DNA of 64,000 nt from positions 12,652 through 76,651 of IMG/VR virus record IMGVR_UViG_3300033149_006574; one strand, written 5' to 3'. The translations under genes and the position numbers were made by a program. Shown here in pieces: positions 11,999 to 44,138 of the stretch. Under the pieces are notes generated by a model, which was given only the letters and a program-made list of their open reading frames with translations, was not told the DNA's origin and did no database searches. The stretch is from a virus. Positions within the stretch are counted from its first letter, which is position 1; every line of letters begins with the position of its first letter.

Positions 11999-13360
11999 AT
12001 GGAAACAGGTCGAAAATTAGTAAAAATAGCGAATTTGATCCTCACATATGAGGAATTTCGAATACCTAAGAAAATAGTTGCAGAAAATTTCATTATAAAG
12101 AAAAAGGACTTTGGGTGCATTGTTTACAAATTAAATGGTAGAAAACCTTTTATCGATATAATCATAAGTAGGACTAAGATACCGGAAGGATTTAAAGCAA
12201 TAATAAAAGGTTATTTGAATTCAAAAAGTTCTGCTTATAAGGAATTTCTCGTAAAGCAATATCTTTTCGGTCTTAAAAAGAACAGTCCTCTTTTTAATCC
12301 AACAGCAGAAGTTCTTCTAAGTAAGCCCTTTTCAGAAATACTAGAAAAAGAATTTATTTTTTATGTAGTACAAAGAAAGCCGTGCCTTCTTGCCAAAAAG
12401 CCCCTTCTGAGGATTAAAAATTCAGCTCGTCCTGCCTGGATATTTTATCCCTCATCAAGAATATATATTAAATGGCCACCAATTAGCATTCAGAAATTGG
12501 CAAGAATGAAATATTTCCCATCGATAAAAATAGCAGGTTCAATGGTAGCAGTTCCTATAGGAATGGGAATAAAACTTTTAAAAGATAAAAGTATTCATAT
12601 TGAGGAGAAGAAAGGAGAATTTTATCTTGTACCCGAAGATATTTTTAAAAGAATGGAAAATAATGATTCCTTTAAGACAATTTTAAATTTGCTTAAAGAA
12701 TCTAGAACGGTAGACTTAACTTTCCTATGTGCAAAATACTATTTACTCGATTATATTTTAACGATAGCAGATAGATTTGACATTGATACATTTGAAGAAA
12801 GGGCTGAATTTGGGGAACTACAGAATTTTTTATTAGACCTTTTTATAGAATATATAGCATTTGCTTGTTATAGTGAATTAAAGCACAGCAGAAAAAAAAT
12901 AGCAGAATCCTGGAGGATAAAACAAATACTAAATAAAAAAGAGTTAAAATTATTTAATTGTATACCGATAGATGATGTGCCATCTCAGCGTTCTTTTAGG
13001 CTTATTAAATTATTAATAAATTTCCCTGTTGATAATAAAATACCCGATATTTTGAAAATGGCTAAGAAATTGTTCTCTTTGCGCTGGGAGAGAGGTTATG
13101 GTGGAGAAAAATGGAAAATAATTGCAGATATAGGTTTAAAATATGTTAATGAGGACATTAATAAATCTGTTTTTATAGATACCGTATGGAACATTCAGCA
13201 TAATAACGGAACATTTTTCGATAAGGGAAGGGAATTTTTATACTATGGTCATGTACGTGATATATTAGATGCGAAAAATGAGGGTGAATGGGAAATATTA
13301 TTATCGAAATGTCCGCAACTTGCAAAAAAATTATGGGAGGTAAAAAGATATGACAGATAA
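11999..13360 (+). CDS. Uncharacterised protein with conserved-looking C-terminal domain (ELKH...GYGGEKW...QHNNGTFFDK)
   Basis: 453-aa ORF with SD; overlaps the phosphatase gene. Confidence 0.75.
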   Translation: METGRKLVKIANLILTYEEFRIPKKIVAENFIIKKKDFGCIVYKLNGRKPFIDIIISRTKIPEGFKAIIKGYLNSKSSAYKEFLVKQYLFGLKKNSPLFNPTAEVLLSKPFSEILEKEFIFYVVQRKPCLLAKKPLLRIKNSARPAWIFYPSSRIYIKWPPISIQKLARMKYFPSIKIAGSMVAVPIGMGIKLLKDKSIHIEEKKGEFYLVPEDIFKRMENNDSFKTILNLLKESRTVDLTFLCAKYYLLDYILTIADRFDIDTFEERAEFGELQNFLLDLFIEYIAFACYSELKHSRKKIAESWRIKQILNKKELKLFNCIPIDDVPSQRSFRLIKLLINFPVDNKIPDILKMAKKLFSLRWERGYGGEKWKIIADIGLKYVNEDINKSVFIDTVWNIQHNNGTFFDKGREFLYYGHVRDILDAKNEGEWEILLSKCPQLAKKLWEVKRYDR

Positions 13361-26121: not shown

Positions 26122-27325
26122 GGCAAGAAGACCCCATCCGCAAGGGTGGGGATGAATTGCCTCTCTTGATTTTTAGGCAGAAGTAATATATCACATAAAT
26201 ATGAGATTAACATACAAATACAGACTTTTTCCCGCAAAGAAACACGAGACAATTCTTGACAAGACATTGGAAGAATGTCGCTGGCTCTATAATCATTTCC
26301 TTAAAGAACGCAAAATTTCCTGGGAAAAGAATAAAAAATCTCTTAATTATCATTCTCAAGCAGTATCCATTCCTAAACTTAAAAAGCAAAGACCATCTCT
26401 TAATTCCATATATTCTCAGGTCCTGCAGAACGTTGCTATTCGTGTTGACCTTGCATTTAAGGCATTCTTCCGCAGAGTTAAATCTGGTGAAAAACCAGGT
26501 TATCCTCGCTTCAGAGGACAGGGTAGATATGATTCGTTTTGTTATCCTCAAACAGGATTCAAGATAATTAAGAATAAACTTAATCTTTCTAAAGTAGGTT
26601 CTATTGAAATCAAAATAAAAGGAATTATTAAGAACCTTACTATCAGAAAACAGAGAGATAAATGGTATGCCTGTTTTTCCTGTGAAGTTAAGAGTAAACC
26701 TCTTAAAGAATCTAAACATGCTATTGGTATAGATATGGGACTTGAAACTTTTGCCACATTTTCTAATGGCCAAAAGATAGAAAATCCTCGCTTTTTCAAG
26801 ACAGACCAAAAGGCACTTGCCAGAGCCCAAAGAAAATTGTCTAAACAGAAAAAAGGTTCTCTTGAAAGAAAGAAAGCTAAAAAGATTGTTGCTCGTATTC
26901 ACGAAAGAATCTCTAATAGACGAAATAACTTTTGCCATCAGGAAGCAAGAAAGATTATCAATCGCTTTGGTATAATTTGTATTGAAGATTTGTCTATCAA
27001 TCAAATGCAAAGAGACAACTTCAGAAGTATTAACAGGAGCATTGACGATGTAGCGTGGGGACAATTTGCTCAATATCTCTCCTACAAAGCAGAATACGCT
27101 GGTAGGCAATTGATAAGAGTAAATCCTGCTTATACATCGCAAACTTGTTCTCGGTGCGGACAAAGACAAAAACTTAAATTGTCTGAACGTGTATATCATT
27201 GCAACTCCTGTGGTTTTTCGCTTGACCGAGATATAAATGCTTCTCTAAACATTTTGAGATTGGGAACACAATCTCTTGGTATCCAATCCATAGAAGCCCC
27301 TTCCGTCAGGTAGGGGAATGTTCAC
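26122..27325 (+). mobile_element. Non-autonomous IS200/IS605-family element (tnpB only, IS1341-like)
   Basis: Left-end hairpin GGCAAGAAGACCCCATCCGCAAGGGTGGGGATGAATTGCC; right-end hairpin AAGCCCCTTCCGTCAGGTAGGGG ending TCAC; no TnpA; no target duplication. Confidence 0.85.
26201..27313 (+). CDS. tnpB: TnpB RNA-guided endonuclease
   Basis: TYKYRLFP, GYPRFR, RuvC I GIDMG, RuvC II IEDL, Zn finger CSRCG/CNSCG, RuvC III DRDINA. Confidence 0.95.
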   Translation: MRLTYKYRLFPAKKHETILDKTLEECRWLYNHFLKERKISWEKNKKSLNYHSQAVSIPKLKKQRPSLNSIYSQVLQNVAIRVDLAFKAFFRRVKSGEKPGYPRFRGQGRYDSFCYPQTGFKIIKNKLNLSKVGSIEIKIKGIIKNLTIRKQRDKWYACFSCEVKSKPLKESKHAIGIDMGLETFATFSNGQKIENPRFFKTDQKALARAQRKLSKQKKGSLERKKAKKIVARIHERISNRRNNFCHQEARKIINRFGIICIEDLSINQMQRDNFRSINRSIDDVAWGQFAQYLSYKAEYAGRQLIRVNPAYTSQTCSRCGQRQKLKLSERVYHCNSCGFSLDRDINASLNILRLGTQSLGIQSIEAPSVR

Positions 27326-34854: not shown

Positions 34855-35085
34855 ATGGCTATCCGAAAGAAAACGGTTTGGGTTGCAAAATGTAACGGTC
34901 TATGCGGTAAAAGCATAATAAAAGATATTAATTTTATCTCGTTCTACTACAAATCCGACCTGATTGCAGAACTAAAAAGGCAGGGATGGCATATAGAGAA
35001 ATACGACAAGGTCTATTGCCCTTCTTGCTACAAAAAGAGACAGAGGGCAAAGGCACAAGTGAAAAAGAACAGGAGGAAGCCTTGA
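34855..35085 (+). CDS. Zn-finger-like hypothetical protein
   Basis: CNGLCG...GW...YCPSC; its stop overlaps the TTG of the MTase frame A. Confidence 0.65.
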   Translation: MAIRKKTVWVAKCNGLCGKSIIKDINFISFYYKSDLIAELKRQGWHIEKYDKVYCPSCYKKRQRAKAQVKKNRRKP

Positions 35086-35873
35086 CCTTCTTGAGCGTAA
35101 TGTCTGGTTGCGGTGGAATGGATTTAGGAATAGAAAGGAGCGGATTCAAATGCAAAGGACAAATAGAGATAATGCCATATGCTTTGAAAATCTTGAAGAA
35201 GCATTGGCCAAAAGTCCCGAAACATACGGACATCTTGACCTTTTGTGTGCGGGATGGCCTTGTCAGGACAATTCAATCGCAGGTAAAAGAAAGGGTATGC
35301 AGGGTAAAAGAAGCAGTTTATGGAGTGAAGTTAGAAGACTCATCGGAATATTCTACCCTAAATGGCTTATGCTCGAAAATGTTCCCGGACTTTTCTCTGT
35401 CAACAATGGCAAGGACTTCTGGCAAATCATATCCGACCTCGATTCGCTCGGGTATTGTGTGGCGTGGGATGTGCTGGACTCACAAAACTTTGGAGTGGCA
35501 CAACGAAGAAAAAGAGTGTTCATTATCGGAAGTTTTGGAAACATCGGTGCATCCAAAATATTATTTGAGCCGAAAGGCAGTAGCAGGAATGATAAGGCGA
35601 AGCAAAAAATGGGGGCGAGGGGGTTATGTATTTCTACAAGAGATGGAGAAAGGAATGACCCGACGAATGAAACTATTATCGCTTCAACAATTGGAACAAG
35701 CACTAACCCCGACCCCAACTACGGAACACACTTCATCGCACAAACAATCGGAGCATCCCCAAGAGGTAATACTTCCTTTGTATGGCAAGACACTTATATT
35801 GCGGAAACTAACTCCCATAGAAAAAGAGAGATTACAGGGATTACCAGACAATTGGACTCTCGTAGAGGAATAG
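35082..35873 (+). CDS. C5-cytosine methyltransferase, chain A (motifs I-III and IX)
   Basis: AGGAGG then TTG 35082; FLSVMSGCGGMDLG, QIEI, HWP..TDI; SLSEVLE..HPKYYLS; RKLTPIEKERLQGLPDNWT. Confidence 0.8.
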   Translation: MTFLSVMSGCGGMDLGIERSGFKCKGQIEIMPYALKILKKHWPKVPKHTDILTFCVRDGLVRTIQSQVKERVCRVKEAVYGVKLEDSSEYSTLNGLCSKMFPDFSLSTMARTSGKSYPTSIRSGIVWRGMCWTHKTLEWHNEEKECSLSEVLETSVHPKYYLSRKAVAGMIRRSKKWGRGGYVFLQEMEKGMTRRMKLLSLQQLEQALTPTPTTEHTSSHKQSEHPQEVILPLYGKTLILRKLTPIEKERLQGLPDNWTLVEE

Positions 35874-35953
35874 TTATTGGCAATGCTGTTACTGTTCAGG
35901 TTGCACAATGGTTAGCGAAAAGAATTATAGATTATGAAAGAGGACTTTTATGA
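35150..35953 (+). CDS. C5-cytosine methyltransferase, chain B (motifs IV-VIII, TRD, X)
   Basis: AAGGAG 9 nt before ATG 35150; DLLCAGWPCQDNS, MLENVPG, FGVAQRRKRVFI, IGNAVTVQVAQWLAKRI. Confidence 0.85.
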   Translation: MQRTNRDNAICFENLEEALAKSPETYGHLDLLCAGWPCQDNSIAGKRKGMQGKRSSLWSEVRRLIGIFYPKWLMLENVPGLFSVNNGKDFWQIISDLDSLGYCVAWDVLDSQNFGVAQRRKRVFIIGSFGNIGASKILFEPKGSSRNDKAKQKMGARGLCISTRDGERNDPTNETIIASTIGTSTNPDPNYGTHFIAQTIGASPRGNTSFVWQDTYIAETNSHRKREITGITRQLDSRRGIVIGNAVTVQVAQWLAKRIIDYERGLL

Positions 35954-43336: not shown

Positions 43337-43370
43337 ACACCCCTCTACCTAACGGAAAGAGAGTGTTCAC
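43333..43370. terminator. Hairpin at the convergence of the two genome arms
   Basis: GTGAACAC...GTGTTCAC inverted repeat spanning both stop codons. Confidence 0.6.
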
Positions 43371-43885
43371 GTAGGTTTCACTACTTGACGCCATCCCAAG
43401 TTATATCTGACATAATTTCTCAATGCGGCTGGGGTAGATTGGGCAGAAATCCCCAAAAGTAATCCCTGCATTTGTAGTCCTGAAATTACTGCCTCTGAAC
43501 AATAGTATGCCCAGGGCAATTGTTTGAAAAATTTACAGATTTTCGCAAAAACGCCAAGCCCATCATATATCGTTTTTCCATCCTGACCAACATACCACCA
43601 CCCAAGAGCAATTACTTTCTGCTTTGGCAATGGTATCTCGTAGAACTCGTAAGTATCGTTTTTCCATCTGTCAGGATTATCCTGATGTGGCAGAAATTGC
43701 TCACTTCTCATTCTTGGCCAGCCCATTTCATACAACCTGCCAGCGAAAGGATATTTACAGGTATCGTTTATATCCTCTTCCTGTTCACCGAATATATCAA
43801 ATGTATGAGACCAACCAGGAGAGAATAACCTTATCAGCCGAGATACCCAAGTATCAGATCGTGAGAAACCAATGTATGTTTTCAT
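43367..43885 (-). CDS. Permuted papain-like (YiiX/YebB, NlpC/P60) amidase-like protein
   Basis: SRLIR...WSH...YD..G...YYCSE...TP; likely start ATG 43885. Confidence 0.7.
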   Translation of the reverse strand: MKTYIGFSRSDTWVSRLIRLFSPGWSHTFDIFGEQEEDINDTCKYPFAGRLYEMGWPRMRSEQFLPHQDNPDRWKNDTYEFYEIPLPKQKVIALGWWYVGQDGKTIYDGLGVFAKICKFFKQLPWAYYCSEAVISGLQMQGLLLGISAQSTPAALRNYVRYNLGWRQVVKPT

Positions 43886-43988
43886 TTTTTTTGACTTCCT
43901 TTTTGTCACTATTTTTGTCAAGAATTTATCCTTATTTTTCAATCAGATTCAAAGATTATCCACAAATTTTTGTCAATTATTTTGTCAA

Positions 43989-44138
43989 TTACCCTAGTCG
44001 CCCTGCACCCTTACCTTTTCCAGCGCCTCTGCCATAGCCAGATCCTCCACTGCGACAGCCCCCTGTGTTCTGATTCCTATGTCCACCCCCACTTCTACCC
44101 CGGCCTTTTCCGCTTCCATTTTTTGCACCGTAAGCCAT
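43989..44138 (-). CDS. 49-aa Gly/Arg/Lys-rich peptide
   Basis: AAGGAGG then ATG 44138; MAYGAKNGSGKGRGRSGGGHRNQNTGGCRSGGSGYGRGAGKGKGAGRLG. Confidence 0.7.
   Translation of the reverse strand: MAYGAKNGSGKGRGRSGGGHRNQNTGGCRSGGSGYGRGAGKGKGAGRLG

Follow-up and report, generated by a model that had tools for sequence, protein, structure and literature searches.

M.EcoHK31I of Escherichia coli HK31, a two-chain DNA (cytosine-5) methyltransferase (C5 methyltransferase) with YGGCCR as its target, was reportedly described by Lee, Kam and Shaw in 1995. According to later accounts, its α chain comprises motifs I-VIII, the target-recognition domain and motif X, and its β chain, which carries motif IX, is encoded wholly inside the α gene in another reading frame, both chains being needed for activity (PMC2836561, PMC3404938). 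M.AquI is divided head to tail, with motifs I-VIII on the α chain and the rest of the variable region, motif IX and motif X on the β chain (PMC3404938), and fragments of M.HhaI, M.SssI and M.BspRI complement one another in engineered split enzymes (PMC3404938, PMC3439449). A total overlap of two C5 methyltransferase open reading frames (ORFs) has also been noticed in Streptococcus thermophilus phages of the 5093 group, in pneumococcal phage MM1 and in Tn5252 (McDonnell et al. 2017, PMC5601072; PMC2836561). Here we analyze a locus in a 64,000-nucleotide stretch of viral DNA (the window) taken from an IMG/VR virus record of 76.6 kb that has direct terminal repeats (IMGVR_UViG_3300033149_006574, positions 12,652 to 76,651). 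Two ORFs on the same strand, designated A and B, share a stretch of about 870 bases (35082-35953), with an almost full mutual overlap of 724 nt and frames one base apart, and it seems probable to us that they encode an interleaved two-chain C5 methyltransferase related in principle to M.EcoHK31I.

The theme of a C5 methyltransferase read from two frames is already known from M.EcoHK31I, and the locus analyzed in this work presents a more extreme layout of it. Compared by described layout, both systems have a second chain that draws motif IX from another frame of the same DNA, and in both motif X is back in the main frame. The catalytic domain of the α chain of M.EcoHK31I is nevertheless whole, and β adds only motif IX, whereas here motifs I-III and a hinge module also reside on the second chain, the cofactor-binding and catalytic halves fall on different chains, the two ORFs have almost the same length (263 amino acids for A, 267 for B) and chain B starts after motif I. 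M.AquI is likewise a natural two-chain enzyme split in or beside the variable region, but its two genes are consecutive, whereas here the order is an interleaved A-B-A-B-A-B over nearly completely overlapping frames, in which motif X shares its frame with IV-VIII and motif IX with I-III. The overlaps seen in the 5093 group, MM1 and Tn5252 also involve two C5-methyltransferase-like products from different frames of the same DNA, albeit as observations only. Annotated streptococcal and lactococcal phages differ from the present locus in that they match the frame-A query as two unconnected segments, one with motifs I-III and one with the module, and none of their records covers 80% or more of that query. 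In Lactococcus phage 4268 (NC_004746.1, 7525-8255; L198), an annotated 186-aa 'DNA methyltransferase' (orf14) is followed by some 170 unannotated bases; the frame-A query matches this locus in two pieces, so that a second frame has probably been left unannotated. Engineered split enzymes show that pieces of the fold can come together with no covalent bond between them, so that a natural split is plausible, but they are two-piece and man-made, not natural interleaved overlapping genes. The original prediction, made from the sequence alone, had not recognised the architecture as one already described. The idea of a chain encoded in a second frame is not new, being proven for M.EcoHK31I and noticed in phages and Tn5252; the deeper split, which places motifs I-III on a second chain and divides the catalytic domain, does appear to be undescribed.

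The ORFs, their start codons and the AGGAGG and AAGGAG sites, as read from the sequence, are present as originally claimed (Table 1), and both frames remain open through the entire overlap. Off-frame stops in the other long ORFs of this phage amount to 7.7 (+1) and 10.8 (+2) per 100 codons, so that 724 nt of a second frame should contain about 18; none is observed. Given this background, an open second frame of such length is far from chance, and the third forward frame contains 27 stops across the span of the locus. Motifs I, IV, VI, VIII, IX and X of the Pfam family PF00145 are all present, I and IX in frame A and IV, VI, VIII and X in frame B, and no single frame holds motifs I to X in order. 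The PF00145 profile matches frame A over its positions 1-49, frame B over 33-169 (E 2e-41) and frame A again over 184-297, the last of these from position 35508 in block A2. A second profile, built from 22 relatives with all motifs in one frame, is tiled by A over 9-63, by B over 64-239, by A up to 307 (motif IX) and by B over 314-343 (motif X). The first hand-over from A to B falls in the linker of about ten residues that joins motifs III and IV in ordinary enzymes and is missing here.

Selection follows the same division. In a nucleotide alignment of 26 members of the family, the most variable codon phase (expressed as the wobble entropy ratio A/B) alternates along the locus as A-B-A-?-A-B, with five of the six blocks significant (Table 1), a pattern that was first seen with eight members. 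In the remaining block, B2, the one-frame profile continues in frame B to 35728; frame-B residues C160, G166, D170, P171, E174 and A178 are nearly invariant there and the peptide GLC.STRDGE..DPT.ET.IAST is conserved. The A-B-A-B scheme with three switches proposed at the outset is what the one-frame profile returns, but selection changes frame five times, since SLSEVLE..PKYYLS forms a further frame-A block that overlaps the segment of frame B following motif VIII. Within any given block, amino-acid selection acts on essentially one frame, the other being just read through. True double coding is confined to short stretches, such as the one in which the same bases encode PKYYLS in frame A (35553-35570) and ILFEP in frame B (35558-35572), both of them conserved peptides.

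Table 1. Coordinates of the features of the two-frame methyltransferase locus in the window; ratios are wobble entropy ratios A/B and profile positions are those of the one-frame profile.
Feature	Position	Strand	Frame	Remarks
AGGAGG, Shine-Dalgarno-like	35071-35076	+	A	5 nt 5' of TTG 35082; from sequence
ORF A (chain A)	35082-35873	+	A	Frame open 34932-35873; start TTG 35082; motifs I-III, read-through of IV-VIII of B, hinge module, second read-through, motif IX, stop TAG 35873
Block A1, motifs I-III	35082-35231	+	A	Ratio 3.06, p 6e-9 (over 35085-35231); frame-A selection; profile 9-63; includes motif II and motif III (TDI)
Motif I, FLSVMSGCGGMDLG	35088-35129	+	A	
AAGGAG	35135-35140	+	within A	9 nt 5' of frame-B start ATG 35150
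ORF B (chain B, P0001)	35150-35953	+	B	One base earlier than frame A; frame open 35063-35953; start ATG 35150; N-terminal read-through of II-III of A, motifs IV-VIII, ILFEP segment, probable target-recognition core, motif X, stop TGA 35953
Junction 1, TDI (A) over LDLL (B)	35217-35246	+	A/B	Overlap, zero bases between; conserved
Block B1, motifs IV-VIII	35232-35501	+	B	Ratio 0.68, p 5e-5; frame-B selection
Motif IV, GWPCQ	35252-35266	+	B	
Motif VI, ENV	35375-35383	+	B	
Motif VIII, QRRKR	35501-35515	+	B	
Block A2, hinge/N-terminal target-recognition module, SLSEVLE..PKYYLS..GRGGYVF	35502-35636	+	mainly A	Ratio 1.65, p 5e-4
Block B2, probable target-recognition core, GLCISTRDGE..ETIIAST..FIAQTIGAS..FVWQDTYI	35637-35771	+		Ratio 0.94, not significant
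Block A3, motif IX, then LPDNWT..EE and stop	35772-35870	+	A	Ratio 2.21, p 7e-5 (over 35772-35860); frame-A selection; profile to 307
Motif IX, RKLTPIEKERLQG	35802-35840	+	A	Inside the span of ORF B; frame-A selection
Block B3, LDSRRGIVIGNAVTV..., motif X and C-terminal helix	35861-35950	+	B	Ratio 0.47, p 2e-5 (over 35861-35947); frame-B selection; profile 314-343
Motif X, GNAVT	35879-35893	+	B	

The layout is not peculiar to this virus. IMG/VR contains seven further members of the family (eight contigs in total), and a probe of 26 bases of conserved DNA at junction 1, used in metagenome and species-genome searches, matches 54 metagenome loci from groundwater, marine, sediment, lake and other samples. 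Forty intact copies come from independent assemblies, 26 of them non-redundant (less than 90% nucleotide identity). In all 40, one frame carries motif I together with the module and motif IX, the other carries motifs IV, VI, VIII and X, and no single frame holds the whole series in order. The recurrence of the layout in 40 independent assemblies from many habitats rules out both a sequencing error and a lone decayed allele among single-frame homologs. The exceptions that were found are decayed copies only (L187, L192, L173). In L187, a one-base indel directly after motif IV shifts every frame downstream of it by one, and in L192 and L173 motifs V-VI or VI-VIII have been lost through large internal deletions.

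Databases contain 835 relatives of frame B, and the best 120 show 45-69% identity over about 94% of its length and share its starting methionine. Motif IV is present in 118 of these 120, none of which carries an in-frame motif I, motif IX or module, and the B-type protein clusters number at least 118. In some 90 A-type clusters, gene callers have recorded full-length relatives of frame A instead of B. The prevalence of annotations with frame B alone, together with the visibly decayed copies, could be taken to mean that only chain B is functional and frame A mere read-through, or that the locus represents gene decay or an error of assembly. A C5 methyltransferase piece without motifs I-III and IX is, however, unable to bind the cofactor on its own, and this is precisely what chain B lacks; the three frame-A blocks, moreover, bear frame-A wobble patterns (p 6e-9, 5e-4 and 7e-5), and decay or artefact is already contradicted by the repeated layout. 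Such an explanation is hence extremely improbable.

None of 50,697 deposited phage genomes has the layout of the family, and the junction probe finds two true members in 185,579 species genomes, both on contigs of Omnitrophota metagenome-assembled genomes (MAGs) and too few to name a host. These contigs are L200 (identical to L166, a 153.5-kb scaffold of Candidatus Omnitrophota) and L201, and the protein matches P0046 and P0099 likewise carry the Omnitrophota name; the records may provide a hint of the host, or may be phage contigs binned with a MAG. In a quick version of a tree of the IV-VIII core, the family consists of two well-supported subgroups, the sisterhood of which the tree does not resolve; it is compatible with one origin or with more. 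A protein from a GC-rich source (P0210, 412 aa) contains motifs I-III with a +1 read-through (..CPAKTFPSP.., ..RMFPDFS..) directly after them, and then the module and motif IX. Judging from its sequence, it suggests an A-type chain of a separate lineage, in which the layout would have arisen or would persist. Another protein (P0212, 305 aa) changes frame just before PCQ and may derive from a frameshifted ordinary gene.

Two aspects of the locus bear on how its conserved blocks might be brought together. The first is the start of chain B, where 24/24 members have ATG or GTG at one aligned position and, in every one of them, no stop interrupts the frame before junction 1. At the same position of ordinary relatives, ATG or GTG is found in 4/19, and none of the 19 is open to motif IV (4.2 stops on average); the putative start codon of chain B and its open N-terminal extension are specific to the family. 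The site equivalent to AAGGAG is purine-rich in 23 relatives (GAAA(A/G)GG...), where all arginine codons are AGR, and the frame-A starts of relatives (ATG, GTG or TTG) lie at the same position directly before motif I. The second aspect is the geometry of the junctions. Besides the overlap at junction 1, RVFIIG of frame B overlaps SLSEVLE of frame A at junction 2, and WTLVEE-stop of frame A overlaps LDSRRGIVIGNAV of frame B at junction 5, so that there is an overlap without any linker at these three junctions, of which 1 and 5 had been noticed beforehand.

A single chain might in principle be obtained through serial programmed frameshifts (-1, +1, -1 and two more with the module), the off-frame stretches never being translated. 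Read in order, the conserved blocks do yield all ten motifs of a one-chain enzyme, and at junction 3 a run of six A (AAAAAATGGGG) is partly to fairly well conserved, making a single chain geometrically possible at that point. Nonetheless, in eight aligned members no slippery heptamer (X_XXY_YYZ), in-frame stop or rare-codon pause is conserved at junctions 1, 2, 4 and 5. When set against the one-frame consensus, moreover, a chain joined across the overlapping blocks of junctions 1, 2 and 5 would be without the crossover of about ten residues between strands 3 and 4 (motifs III-IV) and without the VIII-to-module and IX-to-X linkers. Nor would serial frameshifting have any need of a conserved start codon in frame B or of the open N-terminal extension that goes with it, and three to five shifts in series imply a very low yield at known frameshift efficiencies. 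We therefore regard the frameshifted single chain as very unlikely. Frame transitions in C5 methyltransferases are not mentioned in the GeneTack survey or in the Atkins recoding review.

Structure prediction of the complex, which the original prediction had called for, was conducted with two full-length chains, each with its own-built alignment of 23 rows, in three runs and with three controls. The interaction prediction score from aligned errors (ipSAE) of the A+B model was 0.87, 0.87 and 0.86, as opposed to 0.00 for the best control, and the model passes a mark that is reached by 58/80 solved complexes and by 2/110 mismatched pairs. At least 61% of the contacts are common to the runs, and the predicted local distance difference test (pLDDT) of the partner is at least 63. 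The most confident contacts join A2-6 (strand 1) to B30-33 (the strand before PCQ), A15-17 (the motif I loop) to B249-256 (the motif X helix) and A125-126 to B103-105. The first two of these are contacts that a normal C5 methyltransferase core also has. In the model, motif I of chain A lies next to both the motif X and the motif-IV strand of chain B, which is consistent with the shared S-adenosylmethionine pocket envisaged earlier. Modelled alone, the chains give poor folds (mean pLDDT 47.8 and 54.3) in which confidence tracks the blocks selected in each chain, being lowest at residues 46-157 of chain A; the chain B model has a confident helix at 249-266, in the motif X region. The model indicates that the pieces would fit, which is distinct from binding in the cell.

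The stop-free state of frame A must be read against that of ordinary relatives. Over motifs IV-VIII, the 92-93 codons of frame A contain no stop in 24/24 members, when synonymous shuffling leads one to expect 2.6; this is the only informative block, the shuffle having low power in the short ones (0.2-0.6 stops expected). Among ordinary one-frame relatives, the +1 frame of IV-VIII is stop-free in 75/78, where shuffling expects 1.8 stops and the +2 frame has 6.4. In these loci (L006-L083) the open stretch of the +1 frame begins about 39 codons ahead of motif IV and ends about 56 codons past motif VIII, with a median +1 ORF of 168 codons. In 36/78 of them the SLS..LE..KYYLS module lies in the +1 frame, exactly 19 nt after the start of motif VIII, and variation favours that frame, ..CSLSDILE..KYFLS.. 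being better conserved than the main-frame peptide over the same bases. Loci with a +1-frame module range from AT-rich gut phages to GC-rich actinophage-like contigs.

Several frame layouts coexist within this one clade. Two loci (L008, L077) follow the M.EcoHK31I pattern, with the module and motif IX in the +1 frame and motif X in the main frame. Three others (L036, L069, L139) resemble M.AquI in that I-VIII lie in one frame and the module, IX and X in the +1 frame, and L036 at least may be a frameshifted ordinary gene. Motif I is in the second frame in none of 81 classified comparison loci, and what distinguishes the family, on sequence comparison, is the joining of motifs I-III to the +1 frame and the apparent start codon of its own for the rest. 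It is conceivable, if somewhat doubtful, that a translated +1 frame across IV-VIII supplies the hinge module as a subunit throughout the clade, together with motif IX in some lineages and with motifs I-III here. Should this be so, many phage cytosine methyltransferases annotated as single proteins would be obligate two-chain enzymes, and the Rossmann-type core of this family, made of two interleaved chains, would be the extreme of a general rule.

The ordinary relatives also raise the question of whether frame A might be used as more than one product, with a piece carrying I-III and internally started pieces carrying the module or motif IX joining chain B. Relatives that have the module in an open +1 frame lack I-III there, so that a module product needs no I-III; residues 46-157 of chain A are the least confidently modelled; and internal initiation at methionines has been reported in the β frame of M.EcoHK31I (PMC2836561). 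In contrast, no conserved internal start was found in frame A, all 40 intact copies keep this frame unbroken between motifs I and IX, and residues 51-135 of chain A touch chain B in the complex model. An assembly of more than two chains thus seems unlikely. As a candidate internal start, the +1 ATG formed by the ENV motif was discarded, since the AAT codon that creates it is not enforced in relatives (AAC 48, AAT 30). The frame-A peptides KMFPDFS and LVRTI were also rejected as signs of function, for they are the +1 read-throughs of ENVPGLFS and PCQD.

The interleaved heterodimer originally proposed is favoured by what the analysis observes directly, namely the conservation of the layout, the alternating selection, the family-specific start of chain B and the predicted fit of the chains, as well as by the junction geometry. 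Under this reading, chain A would be translated from TTG 35082, probably in a manner coupled to the upstream gene, and would supply the cofactor-binding strands of motifs I-III, the hinge or first target-recognition module and motif IX. Chain B, from the internal ATG 35150, would contribute the catalytic half (IV-VIII), the probable target-recognition core and the motif X helix. The off-frame read-through stretches would be tolerated and poorly conserved, needing only to stay stop-free. Side by side, the two chains would then make up a single methyltransferase fold of the conventional kind, in which strand beta-1 of A would be adjacent to the B strand that leads into motif IV, and motif I of A would form the cofactor pocket together with motif X of B. 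By analogy with the orphan methyltransferases of phages, the enzyme would most likely methylate the DNA of the phage itself against host restriction. As to its origin, a likely ancestor would have had the module and motif IX already in the +1 frame, as L008 and L077 do; a frame-shifting deletion of the III-IV linker would then have made I-III continuous with the open +1 frame, and the remainder would have recruited an internal start codon and become chain B.

Several points weigh against the interleaved heterodimer. The open +1 frame over IV-VIII is clade-wide, not family-specific, and with 75/78 ordinary relatives open in this manner, a stop-free frame A is by itself no proof of a continuous chain carrying I-III and the module. 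Such a chain A would also have to accommodate about 93 unselected residues that separate motif III from the module, which is more than a folded enzyme usually has to bear. In block B2, the frame-A peptide KT..LK.LSL is conserved just as the frame-B one is, and the assignment of this block to frame B is tentative. The start sites of both chains were assigned from sequence alone, the complex model rests on own-built alignments, and, as commonly happens with split genes, its pass may be due in part to a likeness to one-chain methyltransferases of solved structure. More generally, we infer the translation of both chains, their assembly, the activity of the enzyme and its origin from sequence and models.

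If both chains are made and assemble, the locus would encode a natural enzyme in which a single catalytic domain is built from two proteins read one base apart. It would then represent a demanding case for the evolution of overlapping genes, in which selection appears to avoid double coding by switching frames, and would widen the tolerance known for the methyltransferase fold, while providing a ready-made natural split enzyme comparable to those built by hand for targeted methylation. There is also a practical side to it. Annotation pipelines list just a single ORF of the pair (B in at least 118 clusters and A in about 90), reporting a truncated methyltransferase that would be non-functional alone, and predictions of phage self-methylation and restriction evasion would miss or misjudge such phages.

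The TTG start of frame A overlaps the TGA stop of the upstream ORF (TTGA, 35082-35085), an overlap that suggests translational coupling to the upstream gene, and the TGA stop of frame B overlaps the ATG of the next gene (ATGA, 35950-35953). The pair lies within a co-directional block with genes for an HNH endonuclease, an SLT transglycosylase and an RNA ligase. Promoter and terminator scans returned signals at chance level, and a look-up of sequencing runs listed no RNA run with the sequence and six DNA runs containing 5-6% of the sampled words. Elsewhere in the window, two ORFs of 378 and 345 codons (26177-27310 on the + strand and 26210-27244 on the - strand) are antisense to each other over almost their full length, and one of them is presumably a shadow. 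A further ORF of 169 codons (43528-44034, + strand), which overlaps an ORF on the minus strand (43370-43942), has 1.8 and 3.6 stops per 100 codons in its other forward frames, as opposed to the 7.7 and 10.8 typical of this phage.

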